A stretch of DNA of 64,000 nt from Abditibacterium sp. (GTDB lineage: Bacteria; Armatimonadota; Abditibacteriia; Abditibacteriales; Abditibacteriaceae): assembly GCA_965199495.1 (NCBI GenBank), contig CBDASK010000003.1, positions 3,584,001 through 3,648,000 of the forward strand, given 5' to 3'. A program made the translations under genes and the position numbers. Below the pieces are notes generated by a model. The model saw only the letters and a program-made list of their open reading frames with translations. It was not told the origin of the DNA and did not search any database. Below, piece after piece: positions 2,992 through 35,241 of this stretch; within the stretch, counting starts at the first letter, position 1, and every line of letters starts with the position of its first letter.

Positions 2992-3069
2992 TACGCGCGT
3001 TTCCGTGATATTTGCGTGCCGAAAACTTGAGGTTGCGCGCGCGCCGAATCGTTCATACTTGACGCGATA

Positions 3070-5139: not shown

Positions 5140-6939
5140 CTACTCCGTTTGATACCGATAATTAAAGCGACGGGCGGGCGCGCAATCGCCGCTCAGGAAC
5201 CAATCGTTGATGTCGTCGGGGTCGGCGTTGTCCACCCATTTGAAATCAAATGCCAACGGCGTGGCTGCATCGCGCGCGAACAAACTGCGCGGCAACGAGA
5301 GTTCGAGTTCGTTGCCCGCGTAAGCCAACTGCGCGCTCGCCACTTTTTTCCACGCTCCGTTGATCCAACGCTCGACCGATGGCGAACTAAGCGGCTCGTT
5401 CGTTGCGCCCACGCGCAAATCGTAGCCGTGCCAGCCGGTTTTCGCGTTTTGGTCGGCGTCAATAAACAGCATCATCCAACGCGCGTCGGTGCGCGGCGAA
5501 AGCGGCGCGTTGGTGCGGGCGTAAAACGTGACATTATCCGCGTCGCGCGCGACTTTGGCGGCGATAATATCGTTGCGCCCCGTCGTGTTGGTATAGTGAT
5601 ACTCGCCCCAGCCCTCGAAATCGCGGTGCATCGTGTCGCCAATCGAATCGCGAAATTCCGGCCACACATCGCGCCACGGCGCAAAATCGCCGTTAATCGG
5701 AATCGTTTGTTCCTTACCAGCCACGGGCACGGGGCGCGCGCCTTTGAACTTGCGGATGTTGGCGACCATTTGATAATAATAATCGTCGGTGTAGCCGCCT
5801 TTCATCGGGTCAACGTCGCGCGAGAATTCGGCGTTATATAAATCCACGAAGAACGGATCGCCGACTTTCTGCATCGGATGCCCGGCCATATTCACGACGC
5901 CTTTTTGCCCTTCGATTTGGCCCTCACTCGCGCCCTGACGCTGCGCGACCCATTCGTTCCAACCGGTGATAAAAACCATCGGCGGATCAATTTTCAGGGC
6001 TTGATCCCACTGCTCCTGAAACTGGATGCCCTGATCGTAGGTCGTCGTCATGTCAGTTTTATCGAGCTTGACGCGCGTTTTATTGGCATACGAACGCCCG
6101 ATATTTTCGCCGATGGGATGAGAGGCCACGCCGACCGCGACTTCCTCGACTTTGCCGTTGGGACTCAATCCCGGCTTTTGCGGCGTGCGGTCGCGCCACG
6201 GCCATTTGCCTTTGCCGTCGCCAAACCAGCCTTTGGGATCGGTCTCGAACCACGATTTGCGCCACGTAAAGAAGTTTTGAATTTCGGTGGGAATCGCTGC
6301 GCCGTCTTTGGTTTTCTCGTTTGGGTCGGCCAAAATCAGAGGCTTGCCGTTCCAGCGAAACCAGAGTTCCTGATACTTGCCGTCTTTATAATAGGCGTCC
6401 CACAGTTTTTGAACCGTCCCCACCATATTCGAGTTGAGCAAAAACGCGATTTGCGGCGTCGAGTTGCCCTGCGCCCGCATCTGGCGCGCGGTCTCGAACA
6501 ACACTTTCATTTCGTCGGGATAAGTAAAAGCGTTGGTCACGTCCACGAACAGACAATCCACGCCCGCAGCGCCCAGCAAGCGCAAATTGCGCCGCGCGAC
6601 CCACGGATCGGTCGCCTGATAATAACCAATTTCGGGTTCGCCCCACCAGTGAAACGCGCCCTGCGGCCCCCACTGCGGATCGTCGGGATTGGCGGCCTTA
6701 ATTTTCGTCATGTCGTAGACATCTTTGTGGCCGTGATAGCCCTGCCAGACGAAATAAAAAATGCCGACGAACTTATCGTCCTGCGGTGGCCGCACTTCGC
6801 CACCCATCGGCAGAGTGCGCCCCAAGGCATCGGTCGCCGCCCAGGTGTCGGCGTAAAGGTCGCGGTGTTCGTCGGCTTTGGCGTTGGACATGAAAAGTAG
6901 GGCGCCTCCCAACGCCGCAAGAAGTAGCGGAGTTTTCAT
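5140..6939 (-). CDS. Secreted putative glycoside hydrolase (GH99-like TIM barrel plus C-terminal beta domain)
   Basis: Signal peptide; VGIFYFVW, HWWGEP..GYY and FITGWNEW motifs. Confidence 0.7.
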   Translation of the reverse strand: MKTPLLLAALGGALLFMSNAKADEHRDLYADTWAATDALGRTLPMGGEVRPPQDDKFVGIFYFVWQGYHGHKDVYDMTKIKAANPDDPQWGPQGAFHWWGEPEIGYYQATDPWVARRNLRLLGAAGVDCLFVDVTNAFTYPDEMKVLFETARQMRAQGNSTPQIAFLLNSNMVGTVQKLWDAYYKDGKYQELWFRWNGKPLILADPNEKTKDGAAIPTEIQNFFTWRKSWFETDPKGWFGDGKGKWPWRDRTPQKPGLSPNGKVEEVAVGVASHPIGENIGRSYANKTRVKLDKTDMTTTYDQGIQFQEQWDQALKIDPPMVFITGWNEWVAQRQGASEGQIEGQKGVVNMAGHPMQKVGDPFFVDLYNAEFSRDVDPMKGGYTDDYYYQMVANIRKFKGARPVPVAGKEQTIPINGDFAPWRDVWPEFRDSIGDTMHRDFEGWGEYHYTNTTGRNDIIAAKVARDADNVTFYARTNAPLSPRTDARWMMLFIDADQNAKTGWHGYDLRVGATNEPLSSPSVERWINGAWKKVASAQLAYAGNELELSLPRSLFARDAATPLAFDFKWVDNADPDDINDWFLSGDCAPARRFNYRYQTE

Positions 6940-7111: not shown

Positions 7112-8311
7112 TCAGTGCCCGTTTTCTACCGGTTCAGTCACGATCAAAATATCAACTGTGCGTAATTCGCGCGTTAATTTGCTCAGAATGTCGCCGCGCA
7201 GCAGGTTTTGCCAGCGACTGCGGCTCGAATGACCCATCACAATTTGCGTGATTTCGTTTTCGCGCGCATAACGAATGAGTTCGTCGGCGATGTCGCCTTG
7301 CAACGTCGTGACGGGGATGTTCAACTGCCCTGCGAGCGCGAAATCACTTTCTAAAATTGTTTTCTCACGTTGATTTACCACGCGGTCAGCGACGTAAGCC
7401 GCGACGATTTCGCGGTCGGAGCGCTGGCTCATGCGCCAGCCACGGCGTAGCAGTCGCAGGCTCGAACTGGTTGGCGACAGGCAAACCAGAATGCGTTCGC
7501 CGGTTTGCCAGTGCGTCGCGATTTGTTTCTGTCTCCGGTAGTTGGTAACGTTTTGGTCTACGCCGTGCGCCGTTTCGCGGAGCGCAATTTCGCGCAAAGC
7601 CGACAAATTGCCTTCGCGAAAAAAATTGCCCAGCGCCGCCTCAACTTTATCGGGATGATAAATATCGCCGCGTTTGAGCCGGTTCATCAGCGCGCGCGGC
7701 GTGATGTCAATGATGGTGACTTCGTCGGCCTCGCGCACAACGCGGTCGGGAATCGTTTCGCGCACGCGCACGCCGGTGATATCGAAAACCGAATCGTTGA
7801 GGCTTTCCAAATGTTGAACATTGACCGCGCTCAAGACGCTAATGCCCGCTTCCAGCAAAACCTCGACATCCTGCCAACGTTTGGTATTTCGCGAACCGGG
7901 CATGTTGGTGTGCGCCAGCTCGTCCACCAGACAAATTTGCGGATGGCGCGCCAAAATCGCCCCAACGTTCATTTCCTGAAACGTGGCGCCGCGATATTCG
8001 ATGGTTTGTAAAGGCACGCTTTCGAGTTCGCCCAGTTGCGCAACCGTGCCCGCGCGTTTATGAGTTTCGACGAAGCCGATGACGACATCTTGTCCGCGCG
8101 CGCGGCGGCGATTGGCCTCTTCGAGCATGCGGTAAGTCTTGCCGACGCCCGCCGCGAAACCTAAATAGATTTTCAGGCGCCCACGCCCGTTAACCGGCCC
8201 GACGCGCGGCGCGTCTTCATCGAGCGCATCGGCGACGTGGCTGCTATCGAGCGCGACGATTCCGGCCTCGCGGTTGGCGAGTTGCAGCCATTCTTCGGGC
8301 GTTTTAGTCAT
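7112..8311 (-). CDS. kdpD: Stand-alone KdpD N-terminal domain plus USP domain protein (no TM or kinase domain)
   Basis: GRLKIYLGFAAGVGKT, LVDELAHTN, NVQHLESLND and NFFREGNL motifs; USP-like C-terminus. Confidence 0.9.
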   Translation of the reverse strand: MTKTPEEWLQLANREAGIVALDSSHVADALDEDAPRVGPVNGRGRLKIYLGFAAGVGKTYRMLEEANRRRARGQDVVIGFVETHKRAGTVAQLGELESVPLQTIEYRGATFQEMNVGAILARHPQICLVDELAHTNMPGSRNTKRWQDVEVLLEAGISVLSAVNVQHLESLNDSVFDITGVRVRETIPDRVVREADEVTIIDITPRALMNRLKRGDIYHPDKVEAALGNFFREGNLSALREIALRETAHGVDQNVTNYRRQKQIATHWQTGERILVCLSPTSSSLRLLRRGWRMSQRSDREIVAAYVADRVVNQREKTILESDFALAGQLNIPVTTLQGDIADELIRYARENEITQIVMGHSSRSRWQNLLRGDILSKLTRELRTVDILIVTEPVENGH

Positions 8312-8460: not shown

Positions 8461-9201
8461 TCAGCGTGTTAAAACCGCGTCCATCCAGCGGCGCAGATTC
8501 GATGGCAATTCTTCCATGCGCAGTTCGCCATTGGGCGGCGGCGTGGCGTTTTGCCACAGATAATTGGCCAGCGCCTCTTCGCCCAACCAGAGCCAGAAAC
8601 GGTCGCTTTCTTCTAACGTCTCGCGGTCGGCGTGAGCGTAAACCAACTCCATGAAGAACGCCGGAAAACTCACGCGACACGCGACGCCCTCGCCCGCCGC
8701 CTGACGAATGATAAAGCGATGAATCAATGCGCCATCATCGGCGCCGTGGTCAGGCGTCTCGCTTGCCGCTTCGATGCGAAATCCGTTGACCGCCACGCCT
8801 GCGGGCGCCGCGAAATCGTCGTGCGAAACCGATGGCGCATCCTCGCTCAAAGCCGTAGCCACGGCGGCGCGTAGCACATCGGTGGTGAACGGTTTGCGCA
8901 AAAAATTAACGGCTCCAGCGCGTTGGGCTTCGAGCGCCAAATCAACCGTGCCGAACGCCGTCACCATAATCACGCGCGCATCGGGGCGGCGCGATTTCAT
9001 GGCGCGTAGCACCTCGATACCTTCCATCTGCGGCATCCGATGATCGAGCAAAGTTAAATCGAAAGCGGTGCCGTCGCCCCACTGTTCGAGCGCGTCGGGG
9101 CCATCGGCGGCAGTGGCGATGATGTGCCCGTCTTTTTGCAGCGCGATCCGCAGCATGAGGCGGATGTTGCTTTCGTCGTCAACGATGAGTATGTTGGCCA
9201 T
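8461..9201 (-). CDS. Response regulator (REC plus uncharacterised C-terminal domain)
   Basis: ILIVDDE, LLDHRMP, VTAFG and FLRKPF receiver motifs. Confidence 0.9.
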   Translation of the reverse strand: MANILIVDDESNIRLMLRIALQKDGHIIATAADGPDALEQWGDGTAFDLTLLDHRMPQMEGIEVLRAMKSRRPDARVIMVTAFGTVDLALEAQRAGAVNFLRKPFTTDVLRAAVATALSEDAPSVSHDDFAAPAGVAVNGFRIEAASETPDHGADDGALIHRFIIRQAAGEGVACRVSFPAFFMELVYAHADRETLEESDRFWLWLGEEALANYLWQNATPPPNGELRMEELPSNLRRWMDAVLTR

Positions 9202-9242: not shown

Positions 9243-10073
9243 CTACGACGACACTCCCAAACTCCGAAAGAACTCGCTCCACGATGAGATGCCCAGTCGC
9301 CTCACTTTCACCGTTTGCGGCACTTCATAAACCGCCAGAGTATTCGGTGGTTGGCGCGCGTTCACGGCGAGATAGTTAATCAAAGTTTGACCGCACAGTT
9401 CGTCCCAAAACGCGTCGTCAGGGCCGATTGCATATCCAACTTCGGCTTCGATTTGCGCCTGAATGTGCGGCGTCACGCCCACGAAGCAACCGATATAATC
9501 GCCATTGGGCACGCGCAGTTGATACATGCGGCCCGACCCGAATTCTGCCGGATGTTGGTGCGCGATGTTCGGGTCTTTTTGCGACTGCTCGGCGGGCCAG
9601 AAGGTAAAACCGTTCATGCTCCACGAACGCGCGGGCAACTTATAACCTTCTTGTCCCGGTTTCGCCAACATCTGCGCCGGGTCGGCGTGGCTGGTGCCGT
9701 CGCCCACGCGCAATTTCTCCAGCGCGACTTTGACGACATCGCGCAAAGTATCGGTTGTGAACGGCTTGCGCAGGAAATCGAGCGCGCCGATTTGCATGAC
9801 CCGCGAGGCGAGTTCGGGCGTGGCGAACGCCGTCATCATCACGATGCGTGCGGTGGGATCAATGGCGTGGGCGCGGGCGACAAATTCGTCGCCGGTCAGT
9901 TCGGGCATCTGCTGGTCAACGAGCGTTAAATCCCACGCGGAGCCATCATCGAATTTTTCGAGGCCCAGCGCGCCATTTTCGGCTTGCGTAATTTCATGGC
10001 CCTGCGCTTTAAGCGTCAGTTCGACCATTTTGCGAATGTTTTTGGTGTCGTCCACCACTAAAATTTGTGCCAT
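9243..10073 (-). CDS. Response regulator (REC plus uncharacterised C-terminal domain), paralog of 8461-9201
   Basis: ILVVDDT, LVDQQMP, MTAFA and FLRKPF motifs. Confidence 0.9.
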   Translation of the reverse strand: MAQILVVDDTKNIRKMVELTLKAQGHEITQAENGALGLEKFDDGSAWDLTLVDQQMPELTGDEFVARAHAIDPTARIVMMTAFATPELASRVMQIGALDFLRKPFTTDTLRDVVKVALEKLRVGDGTSHADPAQMLAKPGQEGYKLPARSWSMNGFTFWPAEQSQKDPNIAHQHPAEFGSGRMYQLRVPNGDYIGCFVGVTPHIQAQIEAEVGYAIGPDDAFWDELCGQTLINYLAVNARQPPNTLAVYEVPQTVKVRRLGISSWSEFFRSLGVSS

Positions 10074-10085
10074 TATTTATCTCCC

Positions 10086-11906
10086 TTAACTTTGCGCCTC
10101 CAACTCAAACCAGAATTCGCTGCCCTGACCCGCCTCGCTCTTAACTTGAATTTCGCCGCCGTGCGCGCCGACAATCGTCCGCGAAATCGGCAAACCTAAC
10201 CCCGCGCCGCCGCCCGTGGCGCCTGGCACTTGCACGAAACGCTCGAATATTCGATCCAAGAACTCGGCGGGAATGCCCCCGCCTTCGTCTTTGACGCGGA
10301 ATACGACTTTGCCCGCCTCAACGTCCTGTGCCTCGACGATAACGGTTCCTTCGTTGGGCGAATGGCGCACGGCATTATTAAGTAAATTCAGCAAAACGCG
10401 CCCGATTTGCACGCGGTCGGCGCGCACGAGCGGTAAATCGGCGCGTGAAAACGTTTGGATTTGCACGCCCTTGCCGCGAGCAGCCACGGCGACATCGTGA
10501 GCGGCGTTATCAATTAATTCGCGCGGCGCGATCCACTCGAAACGCGGCGGATTGGCGCCCGCTTCCATGCGCGTCAAATCCAATAAATCGCGCAATAGAG
10601 CGTCGAGGCGCAGCAAGTCTTCGCGTTGCGCCCGCACAACTTCCATTTGATCGGCTGTGAGTTCTCCAACCGCGCCTTCTTCCAATAATTGCGCGCTCAG
10701 CAAGAGCGAAGTCACCGGCGTGCGCAGTTCGTGCGAGGCGACGCCGATGAATTCGGTTTTCATGCGGTCGAGCGACTGCAAATGTGTCACGTCTTCCAGC
10801 ACAGCGGTGGCGCCCAAAACTGTTTCATCGTCAATCATTGGCGTGGCGCGCAGACGATAAATGCGTTGCGTATCGCCGCTCTCGATTGTCACCAATCCTG
10901 CGGCGCCTTCTTCGGCGGAGGTTTCGCGTGAGACGATGGCGCGCTCGATAGCGCCCACGATTTTCGGTTGGTCTACTGCTTTAGCGAGCGGCATTCCGGC
11001 CAATTTCGACTCCGGCCCGAATAAGCCCTGCGCGGCTTTGTTCAAATGAACGAGGGTGCGCGTCGCATCGGTGACTAAGACGGGATCGAAGAGATTTTCG
11101 AGCGCGGCGTCGGACATTTTCTGCGCGCGATGCAGACGCAAATCCTGATCGCGTTTGGCTTCGCGCAGTTTGGCGACCATATCGTTGAAGGTACGCGCCA
11201 ATAGTCCGATTTCGTCGTCGCGCCGCAGTTCGATAGTGCGATTGAGATGTCCCGCGCCGACCTGTTCGGCTTCCATCGCGAGCGCCATCAGTGGCGTCAA
11301 AGCCAGATTGACGGCGCGGCGCGCGAACCAGATCGCCAAGCCGAGCGCCACGAGCGTGAACAGCGCGCCCAGCCACGCCGCCTGACGCGCATCGCGTTTG
11401 GCGCGCGCGTCGGCGCGCAGAATCGCGTTTTGGTTCAAGTCCAAAATCCGCTGGGCGCGCGCTTTGTTGGCGCGAAACAATGGCTCCAGTTCGGCGAAGT
11501 AGAACGCGCTGCCATTTTTCTTGTCGCCACGAAGCAGCGCCTCCGTTTGATTGCGATAACGTTCGTAACCGCGCGCCAGTTCGTCGGCGGTTTCGCGTTC
11601 GTCGGCCTCGGTAATATTGGCGCGCTCAGCCTTGAGCGCGCCCTGAAAAATCGGCGTATTGCGCTCGAACTGCGCGCGCGCCTTTTCTCTTTGCCCGGCC
11701 AGATAAAACGTGGCGGCGCTATCCTGCCGTTCGAGCGCTTCTTTCATGGTTTGGGCGACAACGACGCTCTGGTAGTTGTCGCGAAAGATGCGATCAATGC
11801 TGTTGCCCAGCCGCAGGAAATTGACGACCGCGCCCGCCATCATCAGCGCCATCAGCGCGACGAGCGCGAGGTGCGAGCCGAATAATTGGGTGCGCAGAGA
11901 TTTCAT
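10086..11906 (-). CDS. Sensor histidine kinase (2 TM, helical sensor, HAMP, PAS-like, HisKA, HATPase)
   Basis: DEIGLLARTFN (HAMP), ASHELRTP H-box, NLLNNAVRH, DEGGGIP, GAGLGLPI. Confidence 0.93.
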   Translation of the reverse strand: MKSLRTQLFGSHLALVALMALMMAGAVVNFLRLGNSIDRIFRDNYQSVVVAQTMKEALERQDSAATFYLAGQREKARAQFERNTPIFQGALKAERANITEADERETADELARGYERYRNQTEALLRGDKKNGSAFYFAELEPLFRANKARAQRILDLNQNAILRADARAKRDARQAAWLGALFTLVALGLAIWFARRAVNLALTPLMALAMEAEQVGAGHLNRTIELRRDDEIGLLARTFNDMVAKLREAKRDQDLRLHRAQKMSDAALENLFDPVLVTDATRTLVHLNKAAQGLFGPESKLAGMPLAKAVDQPKIVGAIERAIVSRETSAEEGAAGLVTIESGDTQRIYRLRATPMIDDETVLGATAVLEDVTHLQSLDRMKTEFIGVASHELRTPVTSLLLSAQLLEEGAVGELTADQMEVVRAQREDLLRLDALLRDLLDLTRMEAGANPPRFEWIAPRELIDNAAHDVAVAARGKGVQIQTFSRADLPLVRADRVQIGRVLLNLLNNAVRHSPNEGTVIVEAQDVEAGKVVFRVKDEGGGIPAEFLDRIFERFVQVPGATGGGAGLGLPISRTIVGAHGGEIQVKSEAGQGSEFWFELEAQS

Positions 11907-12114: not shown

Positions 12115-12711
12115 TTATTTTGCGCCGTCCAAAGCCAGATTCAATTCCAGCACATTTACGCCCGCTTCGCCCAAAACGCCCAATCCGCGCGCTTGCGTAT
12201 TCGCCGCGATTAACGCGCGCACTTTGCTTTCGTCCAAACCGCGCGCCTTAGCCACGCGTGGCGCTTGAAGCGCGGCGTTTGCGGGCGAAATCTGCGGGTC
12301 TAAACCCGACGCGCTACGCGTAACGGCATCAACCGGCACGTTGGCGTTGGCGACCAAACTATTTTCGCGGCGATACTTTGCCGCCAACTGTTTCACGCCG
12401 TCGAATGAGCCATCTTTGGCGCCATTGATGAGCTTGTCGGAAGTCGGGCCGAGGTTGGTGCCGCCCGACGTGGCTGCATCGTAGCCCTCGCCCGCCGCGC
12501 TGGGGCGCGGGTGGAAATATTGCGGCGCGCTAAAGTTTTGACCGATCAAGCGCGAGCCGACAATTTTGCCGTCGCGCTGAATCAGCGAGCCGTCGGCCTG
12601 ATTGGGCATGGCGACTTGCGCGATGGCAGTGACGATGGCCGGAAATACGAGGCCAAAAAGTAAGGTGAACGCCAGCACGGAAACGAGGGCGGGACGGAGA
12701 AGTTTGAGCAT
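12115..12711 (-). CDS. kdpC: Potassium-transporting ATPase subunit C
   Basis: GSRLIGQNF, YFHPRPSA, SASGLDP and VNVLELNLALD motifs. Confidence 0.96.
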   Translation of the reverse strand: MLKLLRPALVSVLAFTLLFGLVFPAIVTAIAQVAMPNQADGSLIQRDGKIVGSRLIGQNFSAPQYFHPRPSAAGEGYDAATSGGTNLGPTSDKLINGAKDGSFDGVKQLAAKYRRENSLVANANVPVDAVTRSASGLDPQISPANAALQAPRVAKARGLDESKVRALIAANTQARGLGVLGEAGVNVLELNLALDGAK

Positions 12712-12842: not shown

Positions 12843-14897
12843 TTACGCCAAATGGAACAACACCAACATCTTATCGAGTAACAAAATGCACGGAAACGGC
12901 ACCAGCAAACCGCCCAATCCGTAGATCAGCAAGTTGCGTTGCAGCGTTTTAGCGGCGCTCATCGGCTTGTAGGGCACGCCTTTGAGCGCGAGGGGAATTA
13001 GCGCGACGATAATTAGCGCATTAAAAATAACCGCCGCCAAAATCGCACTGCGCGCGTTGGTCAGGCCGATGAAGTTGAGCGCCTGAAGTTGCGGGAATGT
13101 CGCCACGAACATCGCCGGGATGATGGCGAAATATTTCGCCACATCGTTGGCAATCGAAAAAGTCGTCAAGGCGCCGCGCGTCATCAGCAAGCCTTTGCCG
13201 ATGCCGACGACTTCGATGAGTTTGGTCGGATCGCTGTCCAAATCCACCATGTTGCCAGCTTCTTTGGCGGCCTGCGTGCCCGTGTTCATCGCGACGCCAA
13301 CGTCGGCTTGCGCGAGGGCGGGCGCGTCGTTGGTTCCGTCGCCGGTCATGGCGACCAGTTTGCCGTCGGCCTGTTCTTTTTTGATCAGCTCCATCTTGTC
13401 TTCCGGCGTGGCTTGCGCCAGAAAATCGTCAACGCCCGCCTCGGCGGCGATAGATTTCGCCGTCAACGGGTTGTCGCCCGTAATCATCACGGTGCGGATG
13501 CCCATCGCGCGCATCTCATCGAAGCGCTCGCGCATTCCAGTTTTTACCACGTCTTTCAGATAAATCACGCCCAAAACGCGGTTGCCGCTCGCCACGCCCA
13601 ACGGCGTGCCGCCGACCTGCGAAATGCGCGTGACCTGCGCGTCAAATTCGGGCGGCACGCTGCCCCCATTGTTTTCGACCCATGCTTTCACCGAATCGCC
13701 CGCGCCCTTGCGCACGCTCGTTCCGCCATAATCCACGCCGCTCATGCGCGTTTGCGCGGTGAACTCGATCCACTCGGCGCCGGGAATCGAACTCTGCTCA
13801 CGGTCGCCCAAGCCGTATTTCTCGCGCGCCAAAACCAGAATCGAACGGCCTTCGGGCGTCTCGTCGGCCAGACTCGACAGTTGCGCGGCATCGGCGATTT
13901 CGCGTTCGGAGACGCCGGGCATCGCAGCGAACTCCGCCGCCTGCCGGTTGCCGTAGGTAATCGTGCCGGTTTTATCGAGCAAAAGCGTGTTGACATCGCC
14001 CGCCGCTTCGACGGCTTTGCCCGACATCGCCAAAACATTATGCTGCATCACGCGATCCATGCCCGCGATGCCGATGGCGCTCAAAAGTCCGCCAATCGTC
14101 GTCGGAATCAAGCAAACCAAAAGCGCCACCAAGACCGCAATCGTCGGAGCGACGCCTTGGCCCGCCGCGCGAACCGAATAGTTAGCGAACGGCAAGAGTG
14201 TGACGACGGCCAACAGAAACACGATAGTCAAACCCGACAGCAGAATCGAAAGCGCGATTTCGTTGGGCGTCTTCTGACGTTGCGCGCCCTCGACGAGCGA
14301 AATCATGCGATCCAGAAACGACTCGCCGGGGTTCTGCGTGATGCGAACCACGATGCGGTCACTGAGAACTTTGGTGCCGCCGGTCACGGCGCTGCGGTCG
14401 CCGCCCGATTCGCGGATGACGGGCGCTGATTCGCCGGTGATGGCCGACTCGTCCACAGCAGCCACGCCCTCAATAACCTCGCCATCGCCGGGAACGCCAT
14501 CGCCCACCTCGCAGACGACGATGTCGCCTTTGCGCAGTTCGGCGGCGGCCACGATTTCTTCTTTGCCGTCGGTCAAACGGCGCGCGTTCGATTGCGTTTT
14601 GGCTTTGCGCAGCGTATCAGCCTGCGCTTTTCCGCGCCCTTCGGCGATAGCTTCGGCGAAGTTGGCGAAGGTCACAGTGAACCACAGCCACAAAGCGATC
14701 TGACCAGTAAAGAGCGCGTCGCCGTGGCTGCTTAAATCGGCCACCCACAGGTAAGTCGTGACGACGGAGCCGACGTAAACCACGAACATCACGGGATTTT
14801 TGGCGACGGCGCGCGGGTCGAGTTTGCGAATCGCATCGCCCGCCGCGCGTTTAAGAATGGCGCCGTCGAGGAGCGAAGCGGAAGTTTTGTTGTTCAT
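12843..14897 (-). CDS. kdpB: Potassium-transporting ATPase subunit B
   Basis: [17 protein letters not shown] and MTGDGTND P-type ATPase motifs. Confidence 0.98.
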
Positions 14898-14920
14898 TTG
14901 CGTATTATGAGTTGCAGTTG

Positions 14921-15024
14921 CCCCGTAGAGACGATGATTTATCACGTCTAAAACGTCAGGTTCTCTTTAAACGTAACGGCAACCCTTATGTTTTAGGCAC
15001 GATAAATCATCGTCTCTACAGGGG
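14921..15024. repeat. GTAG-type REP doublet, family A
   Basis: CCCCGTAGAGACGATGATTTATC ... GATAAATCATCGTCTCTACAGGGG. Confidence 0.85.
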
Positions 15025-15028
15025 TAAA

Positions 15029-16771
15029 TTAAAATGTTTTGCCTGCGCCCATCAGGAAGTGTTCGACGATTGGCCCCAGCGCCAAAACGGGAAAGTAAGT
15101 CAGCGCGCCGACGATGATTATCACGCCGCACAAGACCGCTACGAAAGTTCCGGTATCGGTCGGAAAAGTGCCGAGAGTCACCGGCGAAAACCTCTTGCGC
15201 GCCAGACTTCCGGCGATGGCCAACAGCGGGATAATCATCAGAAAGCGCCCGATGAGCATGGCGATTCCCATCGTCACGTTGTAAAACGGCGTGTTGGCGC
15301 TAAAGCCCGCGAAGGCCGAGCCATTGTTACCCGTTGCGCTGGTGAAAGCGTAGAGGATTTCGCTCAGGCCGTGTGGCCCGGTGTTGTTGACGTTGTTGAA
15401 AGTCGCGCCGTAAGCGCCGTTCAGCCCGCCGACCGGCAAGTTCAAGTTGGCGCCCAGCGCCGAAAAGCCCAGAATCGAAGCGGCTAGCACTAAAACGGCG
15501 AGCATCGCCATCTTGACTTCTTTGGCCTCGATCTTCTTGCCGATATATTCGGGCGTGCGCCCGACCATCAAGCCCGCGATGAAGACGGCGAGAATCGCGA
15601 ACATCAACATTCCGTAGAGTCCCGCGCCAACACCGCCGAAAATCACTTCGCCCGACAGCATATTGAGCAGCGGCACCAATCCGCCAATCGGTGTGAACGA
15701 ATCGTGCATCGCGTTGACGGCGCCGCAACTCGCGCCCGTCGTAATCGTGGCGAACAAAGCGGAATCGGCGATGCCGAATCGAGTTTCTTTGCCTTCCATG
15801 TTGCCGCCCGGCACGTTCAAACTGTGCATCAGCGGATTGCCAACGGCTTCGGCGTGGTAGCAGACGAAGGCACCGATTGTAAACAGCGCGAACATCGCGC
15901 CTAAAAGTGCCCAGCCTTGTTTGGTGTTGCCGACCATTACACCAAAGGTGTAAGTCAGCGCGGCGGGAATCAGGAAAATCGACAGCATCTGCACCATGTT
16001 GGAAAGCGGCGTCGGGTTTTCGTAGGGATGCGCGGAGTTGGCGTTGAAAAAGCCGCCGCCATTCGTGCCCAGCATTTTGATCGCTTCCTGCGAAGCGACT
16101 GGCCCTTGCGCGATGGTCTGTTTGGCGCCTTCTAAAGTTGTAACGTTGGTGTAGGCATTGAAGTTCTGCGGCACGCCCTGCGCGACCAAAACCAGCGCGT
16201 AGACCAGACAAATCGGCGCCAAAATATAAAGCAACGAGCGCGTGCAATCCACCCAGAACGAGCCGATGCCCGAACTTTCGCGGCGCGCGATGCCGCGCAC
16301 CAGACCGATACCCACCGCCATACCCGCCGCCGCGCTCATCCAATTGTGGATGGAAAGCGCGACCATTTGCGAGAAATAACTCATCGTCGTCTCGCCGCCG
16401 TAGGCTTGCCAGTTGGTGTTGGTGGTGAACGAAGCCGCCGTGTTGAACGCCAGATCGGGCGTCATTTGGGTGGCGCCGAAATGCTGCGGGTTGAAGGGCA
16501 AAAATCCCTGCAATCGCAGCAAAGAATAGGACAATAGCAGGCCCGCGACGCTAAAGGCGAGCAGTGAAAACGCGTATTGCTGCCACGTTTGGTCGTCGGC
16601 GTGGCTGATGCCGAAGGCGCGATAAAGGCCGTTTTCGAGCGGCGACAGAACCGGCGATAAAAAGGTGCGCTCACCCTGATAAACGCGGGCCATGTAGGCG
16701 CCCAGCGGTTTGACGGTGAGCAAAAGTAAGCCGCAAAACAGTAGGATTTGGAAAATTCCGTTGGTTGTCAT
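15029..16771 (-). CDS. kdpA: Potassium-transporting ATPase subunit A
   Basis: [19 protein letters not shown] and GNNGSAF filter motifs. Confidence 0.98.
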
Positions 16772-16777
16772 GGCGGT

Positions 16778-16864
16778 TTAGAAGTTCTCCGGTTTAAGCA
16801 GGGCATAGAGCAGGTAGCCAAGCAGGGCGAACGAAAGGATCGCCATTAAAATGAGGTTGAACAT
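16778..16864 (-). CDS. kdpF: K+-transporting ATPase subunit F (28 aa; not in the ORF track)
   Basis: Manual translation MFNLILMAILSFALLGYLLYALLKPENF; YL.YAL..PE.F signature; immediately upstream of kdpA. Confidence 0.92.
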   Translation of the reverse strand: MFNLILMAILSFALLGYLLYALLKPENF

Positions 16865-16877
16865 GAGAATTTTCGAT

Positions 16878-16968
16878 GCCCCGTAGAGACACCGACTTGT
16901 CGTGTCTAAACGTTAATTTGTAGTCAATCTAACGTTTTAGACACGACAAGCCGGTGTCTCTACGGGGC
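16878..16968. repeat. GTAG-type REP doublet, family A
   Basis: GCCCCGTAGAGACACCGACTTGTCGTGTCTAAA ... TTTAGACACGACAAGCCGGTGTCTCTACGGGGC. Confidence 0.88.
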
Positions 16969-16973
16969 GTAAT

Positions 16974-17057
16974 TTAGGCACCATCGCAGAAGCGAACGTA
17001 GAGCGCCATCGCGCCAAAACAAAGCAACGCGAGCGCGGTGTAAAGCAGATCGAGCAT
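16974..17057 (-). CDS. Small hydrophobic kdp-associated peptide (27 aa)
   Basis: MLDLLYTALALLCFGAMALYVRFCDGA; GAGGAG RBS; start overlaps the upstream stop (TGATG). Confidence 0.7.
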   Translation of the reverse strand: MLDLLYTALALLCFGAMALYVRFCDGA

Positions 17058-17194
17058 CAGTTCCAATTCTCCTCGCCCTCGGCGTGGCTGGTGCGCGCGG
17101 CATACTCGCGTTGCGCTTTCGTCGGGTGCGTGTAGAGCCAAAACAGGCTCCCAAATGAAGCGGCGACAATCGCCACATCGTGCAAAATATCCAT
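17057..17194 (-). CDS. Small single-TM peptide (45 aa), first ORF after the kdp leader
   Basis: MDILHDVAIVAASFGSLFWLYTHPTKAQREY...; GGAG RBS at 17201-17204; coupled to the next ORF. Confidence 0.6.
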   Translation of the reverse strand: MDILHDVAIVAASFGSLFWLYTHPTKAQREYAARTSHAEGEENWN

Positions 17195-17237
17195 AGTTGT
17201 CTCCGCGAACAACGCGATTTTCCAAAAACTCGCCGGG

Positions 17238-17325
17238 CAAACAAAAAGGGAGGCCGAAAAGCGCGTGTTCCTGAACAGAAAATTAAAATCTGTCGGTGGA
17301 AACGCTGCTTTTCGGCCTCCCTTTT
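17238..17325 (-). terminator. Leader (attenuator-type) intrinsic terminator upstream of the kdp operon
   Basis: Minus strand AAAAGGGAGGCCGAAAAGC ... GCTTTTCGGCCTCCCTTTTTGTTT. Confidence 0.75.
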
Positions 17326-17432
17326 GACGGGCCACGAATTGTCAAATGATCTCAATTCGTGGCCCTTCCAAACGGCAACCGTTAAAGTTGAAGCTTCGTG
17401 TTATTCAGTTGGCGCGCCGCTTTGGGCGCGAC
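17238..17432 (-). promoter_or_regulatory. Putative structured cis-regulatory leader RNA
   Basis: Successive hairpins near 17411-17430, at 17371-17383 (AACGG-TTG-CCGTT) and at 17329-17365 (13-bp perfect stem), then the terminator. Confidence 0.55.
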
Positions 17433-17439
17433 TTCATTT

Positions 17440-17469
17440 AGCATAGACCAAATTGGATTTGGCGCGCAA
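17440..17469 (-). promoter_or_regulatory. Candidate sigma70 promoter for the kdp leader
   Basis: TTGCGC-18 nt-TATGCT on the minus strand. Confidence 0.4.
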
Positions 17470-17477
17470 GTGGGCGA

Positions 17478-17855
17478 TTACTTCTTATTGGCGAATTGCT
17501 TCTCCAAGTTTTTCTCAAGCGCATAAACTTCGATTTGTTCGGCGGCTTCGACGTTCAAATCGCAATACGAGCGCGCGACGATACAGCCGCACAAATCGCC
17601 GATGACAGTTTCGATTTCGTCGTGATTAATCGAGCGCAGTTCTTGGCGCGCGCTCTTGATGAGCTTGCGCCCTTCGTCGGACGCCGACAAATGCGCTTCG
17701 ATGGGCGTGAAAATCTGCGAGCAACGCACGAGAATCATATCGCCGACCAAAAAGGCGCGCACCTCGCCGGGGCCGCGCCCCTGTTGCTCGCGATGAAATC
17801 GCGTGATGGCAGCAGCCACGTCGGCTTCGAGCGCGCCTTTGCTGGGGAAACTCAT
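17478..17855 (-). CDS. DUF2294 / MpsC-family protein
   Basis: SKGALEADVAAAITRF...GRGP.EVRAFLVGDMILVR...TPIE...EGRKLIKSAR pattern. Confidence 0.88.
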   Translation of the reverse strand: MSFPSKGALEADVAAAITRFHREQQGRGPGEVRAFLVGDMILVRCSQIFTPIEAHLSASDEGRKLIKSARQELRSINHDEIETVIGDLCGCIVARSYCDLNVEAAEQIEVYALEKNLEKQFANKK

Positions 17856-35158: not shown

Positions 35159-35241
35159 GTCGCAGTGGCGAAATGGCAGACGCGTCAGCTTGAGGGGCTG
35201 GTGCCCGCAAGGGCGTGGAGGTTCGAGTCCTCTCTGCGACA
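35159..35241 (+). tRNA. tRNA-Leu(GAG)
   Basis: Acceptor stem GTCGCAG/CTGCGAC, anticodon loop TT-GAG-GG, long variable arm, GGTTCGAGTCC; CCA not encoded. Confidence 0.95.

Follow-up and report, generated by a model that had tools for sequence, protein, structure and literature searches.

The kdp operon of this Abditibacterium genome is preceded by a leader RNA of which the conserved, covarying part is a rod-shaped fold competing with a strong predicted terminator, and matches to this RNA in the phylum were found exclusively in genomes which also encode MpsC (DUF2294, PF10057). We propose, with a probability of about 0.6, that the leader is a default-OFF attenuator and that MpsC is a candidate antiterminator binding the rod. 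The leader stands where the usual regulator KdpE is missing, and together with MpsC it suggests a third mode of control for K+ uptake in bacteria.

The window, by which we mean the whole stretch of 64,000 nucleotides that was analysed, comes from a genome of 4.8 Mb which is 95% complete. On the minus strand, on which all features below are located unless stated otherwise, the order is mpsC, a gap of about 280 nt, two small ORFs, kdpF, kdpA, kdpB, kdpC, a histidine kinase gene, two genes for receiver proteins and a short kdpD. The mpsC gene (DUF2294/YbcI, 17478-17855; PF10057, E 3.8e-28, 98.2 bits for a cut-off of 23) is single copy in its genome and encodes the candidate RNA-binding antiterminator, a protein of 125 aa whose closest named relatives in sequence belong to Abditibacterium and other Armatimonadota. 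Past the terminator, the first ORF is ORF1 (17057-17194, 45 aa, first ATG at 17194), which is followed by the hydrophobic ORF2 (16974-17057, 27 aa). The transporter genes are kdpF (16778-16864; PF09604, E 3.7e-7), kdpA (15029-16771; PF03814, E 1e-241), kdpB (12843-14945; PF00122, PF00702) and kdpC (12115-12711; PF02669, E 1.6e-69). According to domain profiles, the next gene (10086-11906) encodes a membrane histidine kinase with 4HB-like, HAMP, PAS, HisKA and HATPase domains, of a kind typical of leader-type kdp operons, and the two after it encode receiver proteins: RR-X1 (9243-10073), with a divergent C-terminal domain that we call X, and RR-X2 (8461-9201), with an acidic X domain. The short KdpD (7112-8311; PF02702, PF00582) consists of an N-terminal KdpD domain and a Usp domain without histidine kinase, and it reaches 407 bits against NF038185, under the cut-off of 550.

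An earlier note on this DNA had described a candidate promoter and a leader of about 240 nt directly downstream of the DUF2294 gene, and both are present in the sequence. The candidate sigma-70-type promoter (17440-17469) has a -35 element TTGCGC (17469-17464) separated by 18 nt from a -10 element TATGCT (17445-17440); of the nine relatives listed, the four nearest ones have hexamers at the same position, as do two copies that are further away, and those of the window were not called by a promoter consensus scanner. Transcription would start near 17433, that is about 240 nt before the first ATG. The 13-bp stem and the strong terminator after it, which the same note had announced, are there as well. 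By sequence and alignment, the stem (17329-17365; arms 17365-17353/17341-17329) is the apical stem of a longer rod (17313-17381), for which there is evidence from the alignments A3 and A6, from covariation, from our model R1 (56.6 bits, for a copy belonging to the training set) and from the minimum free energy folds (MFE) of the nascent RNA. The terminator predicted by folding (17239-17325) is made of a 19-bp perfect stem (17325-17307/17262-17244), inner helices and a U run. The core of the rod (17381 to 17313) measures about 70 nt and has fixed non-canonical pairs, and its 3' strand is the left arm of the 19-bp terminator stem. From the base upwards, one can follow the outer helix P1 (GG/CC, two U-G pairs, an invariant G.A, then two pairs which are CC/GG or AC/GU), an internal loop of about 5x5, a 2-bp helix, a tandem A.G/purine mismatch, and the apical stem, which varies in length and sequence between species.

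That alternative folds are possible was also part of the earlier note. A conserved competitor of the terminator does exist, in which CGGUUGCC (17381-17374) pairs with GGAGGCCG (17320-17313), but the antiterminator proposed at the time was another one: neither the TTTG...CAAA extension nor the pairing of CTTCAACTTT with AAAGGGAGG is the conserved pairing, and the pairings of AACTGAATAAC and CTTCAACTTT were rejected, both segments falling outside the conserved alignment columns. The leader folds with a z-score of -7.1 (0 of 200 shuffles were as stable). Folding of the nascent RNA of the window favours the rod while the 3' end lies between 17312 and 17260, and by 17250 the terminator has overtaken it; the terminator alone reaches -50.4 kcal/mol, about 22 kcal/mol better than the fold constrained to keep the rod. 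We also folded 50 copies, namely the R1 matches of at least 25 bits minus one short match which is probably false: 48 of them have the rod as MFE fold when the core is taken by itself, and in 44 a U-tailed terminator replaces it once 90 nt are added to the core. As the rod is best early and the terminator wins later, we concluded that the layout of the leader is OFF by default and that something would be needed to hold the rod.

A covarying motif ahead of a terminator, which the earlier note had suggested looking for beside other DUF2294 genes, does occur there. Among 15 loci found through the MpsC protein, the motif follows mpsC immediately in 12 and lies 1.9 kb further in one more, and in two the contig ends at the gene. 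In an alignment of 30 copies made from sequence only, 90% of the cells pair and 8 of the 15 pairs change on both sides, with a covariation of 0.455 versus 0.186 in shuffles (0 of 500 reach the observed value) and at most 0.118 in slid controls. Both-sided changes affect 13 of the 17 pairs among 54 copies aligned with the model, an alignment which leans to the structure. The conserved and covarying part is the antiterminator fold and not the interior of the terminator. A handful of bases of the rod are invariant, and it has neither multi-helix junction nor loop conservation. Subtypes of the rod differ at fixed positions according to the target: they read UU/GG where K+ genes or mpsC follow, and AA/AG where the genes of PEPCK or of an MFS protein follow.

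The leader matches no known Rfam family, in keeping with the reading of the earlier note: with Rfam 15 at the gathering threshold, the sole match of the window is a tRNA at 35159-35241 on the plus strand. A search of 16700-17600 at E<=10 returned sub-threshold hairpin matches alone, mostly to miRNA models, and 13 loci carrying other copies of the rod returned 0 matches. The c-di-AMP riboswitch is lacking at the leader, as the note had stated: RF00379 is absent from the window and has 0 matches at E<=1 in the genome, with a positive control in B. subtilis. For RF03071 there is no match at the leader even at E 10, and elsewhere in the genome there are two weak ones (17.1 and 13.9 bits, for a cut-off of 40.5). 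We found no published description of this RNA or of an RNA-binding MpsC, in a literature search that missed most subscription journals, and an earlier uncurated prediction of the RNA may exist.

The tie between the RNA and mpsC was examined over the phylum, where PF10057 is found in 43 of 201 genomes. Model R1 was run, with stricter filters and 63 candidates scored per genome, on 160 of these genomes, and it has a match in 25 of the 43 mpsC-positive genomes versus 0 of the 117 mpsC-negative ones; the positives are partly circular, because R1 was trained on copies beside mpsC. The other 18 mpsC-positive genomes have no R1 match, and just two of them (G109, G071) show a divergent copy in the flanks examined. 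One R1 match of 35 nt (contig C50 of G087) lies inside a coding region and is probably spurious. Within the phylum, mpsC, the RNA and kdp move as one cassette, and the targets of the RNA are kdp, mpsC, the HK/RR-X pair (histidine kinase and receiver protein) and KimA-like K+ importers, of which the one in G059 matches KimA (6s3k) with E 7e-136. Three genomes (G181, G136, G026) have copies away from mpsC, on another contig or 8 kb off, and all three are mpsC-positive. In many genomes a second copy or subtype is found immediately before mpsC, which is the arrangement expected of an antiterminator that regulates itself, and this counts for antitermination by MpsC; the genome of the window has no copy at that place. 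In one locus (L164:1994-3008) the mpsC-type RNA occurs twice upstream of mpsC, with a PIN-type toxin-antitoxin pair between the two copies.

In metagenomes, we searched for the motif itself and obtained 53 pattern matches, 18 of them with at least 35 bits. The locus includes mpsC for 14 of these 18 good copies (they represent 13 contigs, some probably from the same organisms as the training copies) versus 0 of the 35 poor matches. The four others have no mpsC within the available stretch of contig, which for one of them extends over 63 nt upstream only; two precede an ORF which looks KimA-like by eye and has a cut N-terminus, and one precedes an Amt transporter. Contig L216, with no mpsC in the available stretch, has two copies (2995-3063 and 5461-5530), and the genes that they precede encode an Amt ammonium transporter and an M50 peptidase.

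The co-occurrence test is confined to one phylum, because in another phylum mpsC is found in only 1 of 81 genomes, the centre genome. Model R1 does not detect the copies of Bacillota. We also report the results of a structural descriptor, which was written from the copies of the phylum after two Bacillota candidates had been spotted by eye, and of which an earlier, stricter version missed the Bacillota copies. Among the 15 loci scanned, 5 have a single rod-plus-terminator by this descriptor; each locus was also shuffled 10 times, and no shuffle gave a match. In three of them the element follows mpsC, and the gene after it codes for a bicarbonate permease (Anoxybacillus), an MFS protein (Acetoanaerobium) or PEPCK (G071); in a Xenobia genome it comes before mpsC. 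The match in L097, inside a small coding region, is a probable false hit. With the same descriptor there is no rod around mpsABC on a Staphylococcus plasmid (L050) nor around the mpsC of Paenibacillus. In another locus (L101:6968-10096), a GTP-PEPCK fused to a class I/II aminotransferase is encoded behind mpsC and a rod-terminator leader.

KdpD/KdpE controls the initiation of transcription, by means of an OmpR-type protein and of direct repeats located upstream. Leader-type loci have the same kdpFABC operon, and the locus of the window keeps a short KdpD/Usp, but both the OmpR-type regulator and the repeats are missing from them. We looked for kdpA in 80 genomes and found it in 41. In addition to the window, 39 kdp regions were compared: one genome contributed two, and two genomes whose kdp contigs are fragmentary were left out. 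A KdpE-type gene, with receiver and Trans_reg_C domains, is present in 13 of the 17 leaderless regions versus 0 of the 22 leader-bearing ones, of which three are cut by contig ends and one (G109) has a weak RNA copy only. The guess about the absence of KdpE holds: no kdp locus examined has both the leader and KdpE, the regulators of the window have no Trans_reg_C, and a profile built from 10 of the 13 kdp-adjacent regulators gives at best 90 bits in the genome of the window, versus 133-155 bits for the regulators beside kdp. Direct repeats, which we take to resemble the KdpE box, precede kdp in 14 of 17 leaderless regions versus 2 of 23 leader-type ones, with a pattern that was written after viewing the leaderless loci; in the window there is none in the 900 nt upstream of kdpA. 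A quick tree of KdpA needs only two state changes: the leader type arises once, and G027, although nested in the leader-type clade, has KdpE and lacks the RNA, mpsC and RR-X. Hence the exchange with KdpE amounts to about two evolutionary events, not dozens.

The leaderless kdp operons of the f29 group open with an MpsC-like ORF lacking the GRG motif and most of the basic residues: the two segments contain 1-4 K/R, versus 5-7 in the leader-linked proteins. This fits a relaxation after the loss of the RNA, another history being possible. The degenerate ORFs (L141:14075-14512, L138:14282-14665, L142:1625-2011, L149:3233-3607, L154:14448-14804) all come from one family, and they may be relics or a repurposed subfamily.

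The AF2 model of MpsC (pLDDT 93) is a small alpha/beta domain with the order helix-strand-strand-helix-helix-strand, which may resemble that of the type II KH domain. The fold search gave no clear match in solved structures (best Z 6.7), and a chain from a 30S-RbfA entry (Z 5.6, rmsd 3.8, 89 aligned) appears there with unrelated rows of similar Z alongside. There was no Foldseek match at E<=0.001, the sequence search of the PDB gave designed proteins only at E<1e-5, and the Atlas contains no usable match outside PF10057. The residues which are invariant in 41 close homologs include R22, G26, R27, G28, R70 and R95, and the alignments show a conserved QQGRG loop and a basic helix (60-89), in a protein that is not net basic (16 K/R, 19 D/E). 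In S. aureus, according to an extract of PMC6689103, the deletion of mpsC had no growth phenotype and no effect on MpsAB, and its authors concluded that MpsC is not part of the transporter.

We propose the following scheme. RNA polymerase would use a promoter that has a -35 of its own and start near 17433. The rod is computed to fold first, once 17313 has been transcribed; if it is unprotected, its 3' strand should be taken by the right arm of the terminator, and transcription should stop in the U run near 17240. The active form of MpsC, which is probably an oligomer, would bind the non-canonical pairs of the rod with its GRG loop and basic helix and thereby block the strand exchange, so that kdpFABC-HK-RR-kdpD is transcribed. 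In favour of this speak the covarying rod that overlaps the terminator, the co-occurrence of the RNA with mpsC in the phylum and in metagenomes, the copies away from mpsC, the exchange with KdpE, the joint absence of RNA, mpsC and RR-X in G027, the degenerate MpsC-like ORFs of f29 and the lack of a CAT-domain protein. Against it speak the partly circular training of R1 and the linkage of mpsC, RNA and kdp, the 18 mpsC-positive genomes with no R1 match, the four good metagenome copies with no mpsC in the available stretch, the small number of exchanges with KdpE, the charge of MpsC, and in Staphylococcus the S. aureus deletion and the lack of a rod around mpsABC. In this lineage the activity of MpsC would be tied to K+ shortage, most plausibly via the co-encoded histidine kinase and RR-X. 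These kinase and receiver proteins, which the earlier note does not mention, may supply the signal, and from kinase to RR-X to MpsC would be the simplest route for K+ status. This is the weakest step, for which we see about even odds provided that MpsC binds the rod; it is loose because the HK/RR-X set is also found in 3 of 37 mpsC-negative genomes (G007, G039, G009), with no RNA in the regions examined. The short KdpD gene need not feed the leader, because KdpD/Usp proteins are known as serine kinases inhibiting KdpB, mostly in species without KdpE (as far as the available part of PMC11018627 goes). The candidate MpsC-leader module would do the transcriptional job of KdpE, and the short KdpD would probably keep only a post-translational role.

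One can also imagine that RR-X, acting like an ANTAR protein, or a complex of RR-X and MpsC, is the binder of the RNA, with MpsC as an adaptor. RR-X is found in 24 of the 25 RNA-positive genomes, and together with the kinase it stays with mpsC and the RNA also where these are not near kdp (G059, G181); it combines a phosphorylatable receiver with an uncatalogued output domain, and no DNA-binding domain was found in RR-X1 or RR-X2. The X domain (8461-8832 in RR-X2, 9243-9680 in RR-X1; model pLDDT 90) has about 120 aa and belongs to no Pfam family; its best Atlas value is 0.80, and its closest fold, the DUF1488 protein 2gpi (Z 7.1, rmsd 3.5, 86 aligned), is a weak match which gives no functional clue. 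We consider RNA binding by RR-X quite improbable: the X domain is acidic (mean K+R minus D+E of -5), RR-X occurs without RNA or mpsC in the three genomes just named, and G071 has the RNA and mpsC without RR-X. Because of these last two facts, the distribution of the RNA agrees better with that of MpsC than with that of RR-X. In G007, G039 and G009, the X-domain receiver occurs with the kinase and a short KdpD, in the absence of kdpA, mpsC and RNA.

It is unlikely, to a lesser degree, that the rod works without protein as an ON riboswitch, sensing an ion or a small molecule such as Na+, pH, bicarbonate or a nucleotide, with mpsC as a co-regulated passenger. A pocket for an ion could be built from the invariant G.A, the tandem A.G and the conserved U-G pairs, but the rod has few invariant bases and neither the junction nor the loop conservation mentioned above. 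An aptamer overlapping a terminator is the layout of Na+-I in the part of PMC9337991 at hand, and yet the leader does not match RF03071. Most of the targets transport ions or solutes (kdp, KimA-like, Amt, SbtA), and positions of the subtypes vary by target (UU/GG versus AA/AG) as ligand variants do; however, the same architecture is found before targets as unrelated as a bicarbonate permease, an MFS protein and PEPCK, which one ligand-binding aptamer explains poorly. K+ itself would have the wrong sign as a ligand, since a rod stabilised by K+ would turn uptake ON at high K+. Moreover a riboswitch leaves unexplained the loss of conserved MpsC residues in the leaderless operons, and 0 of the 117 mpsC-negative genomes have the RNA. 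We regard as very improbable that MpsC binds the leader and favours termination, or that the leader is a fixed element of low read-through which is not switched. The lack of growth defect of the S. aureus deletion (PMC6689103, in the same extract) is what is expected if MpsC is a repressor there, and the 22 kcal/mol advantage of the terminator goes in the same direction, but it is the antiterminator fold which covaries, not the interior of the terminator, and an attenuator of fixed output would have no use for non-canonical pairs that never vary.

Antitermination by MpsC would resemble several known systems. In the BglG/SacY/LicT family, as described in an extract of PMC12591593, the RAT is a rod-like stem-loop which partly overlaps an intrinsic terminator, the default is OFF and the regulator gene is linked. 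Here too the rod overlaps a predicted intrinsic terminator, the predicted default is OFF and the gene of the candidate regulator is linked, but the rod has about 50-80 nt and a variable apical stem whereas the RAT has about 30 nt, the partner is PF10057, unrelated to CAT, and the targets are K+ uptake genes, not sugar PTS. No CAT-domain protein (PF03123) was found in the 95% complete genome, in a search whose control was positive in 4 of 14 genomes. With the ANTAR response regulators (EutV, AmiR, NasR) the locus shares a two-component system, a terminator-containing leader and the lack of a DNA-binding output. ANTAR targets are dual hairpins with hexanucleotide loops (same extract of PMC12591593), unlike the single rod with its variable loop; RR-X and the regulators of the operon have no ANTAR match in Pfam, and the search for ANTAR domains in the genome gave 0 in conditions where the control genomes also gave none. 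Na+-I (DUF1646, RF03071) is, in the available part of PMC9337991, a small ON-type element which overlaps a terminator before cation transport genes, and the leader is such a small element as well; in DUF1646 there are two helices, of which P1 is conserved at its foot and P2 in its loop (same source), where the leader has one rod with a variable apical loop. The c-di-AMP (ydaO) riboswitch controls the termination of kdpFABC and kimA in Bacillota without KdpE (PMC11018627 and PMC6488665, both in extracts). It shares with the leader the kdp and KimA targets, the control of termination and the absence of KdpE; it differs in that binding of the ligand turns it OFF, whereas the conserved element of the leader is an antiterminator, and RF00379 was not found in the genome. 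The leader RNA is outside every family of Rfam 15 and outside the CAT systems: its mode of action, as predicted, is of a known kind, and its parts are new.

If this scheme is true, a function would follow for a widespread domain which is still named as a transporter subunit (compare the extract of PMC6689103), and an RNA family absent from Rfam 15 would be added. The parts are small, a protein of 125 aa and an RNA of about 70 nt, and whether they make a new antiterminator family or a new riboswitch, either would be new. We tentatively consider, as a rather doubtful extension, that MpsC could be the founding member of a widespread and undescribed family of RNA-binding antiterminators, each with a rod-shaped RNA as its target; protein and RNA would make a portable output module, with inputs from inorganic carbon in some lineages or, in Armatimonadota, from a histidine kinase and a receiver of new output which would pass K+ status to MpsC by protein contact. 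In that case a two-component system would end on a separate RNA-binding protein, and kdp would have a third route of transcriptional control beside KdpE and the c-di-AMP riboswitch.

Finally we must mention some minor features of the kdp operons. Neither ORF1 nor ORF2 matches a Pfam or NCBIfam family. Judged by eye, ORFs like ORF1 are present in close relatives, and ORFs like ORF2 stand ahead of kdpF in both kinds of kdp operon, leader-type and leaderless; ORF2 is a possible extra Kdp subunit. In eight genomes (G087, G136, G010, G036, G139, G145, G075, G040), the match to the KdpA profile is split near position 430 within one open frame, and therefore these leader-type KdpA have an insertion of about 40-50 residues. 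Between ORF2 and kdpF of the window lies a palindrome with arms of 33 nt (16878-16968); as it has 80 BLAST matches in its own genome, at about 40 places and on both strands, it is a dispersed REP/MITE-like repeat, outside the switch.
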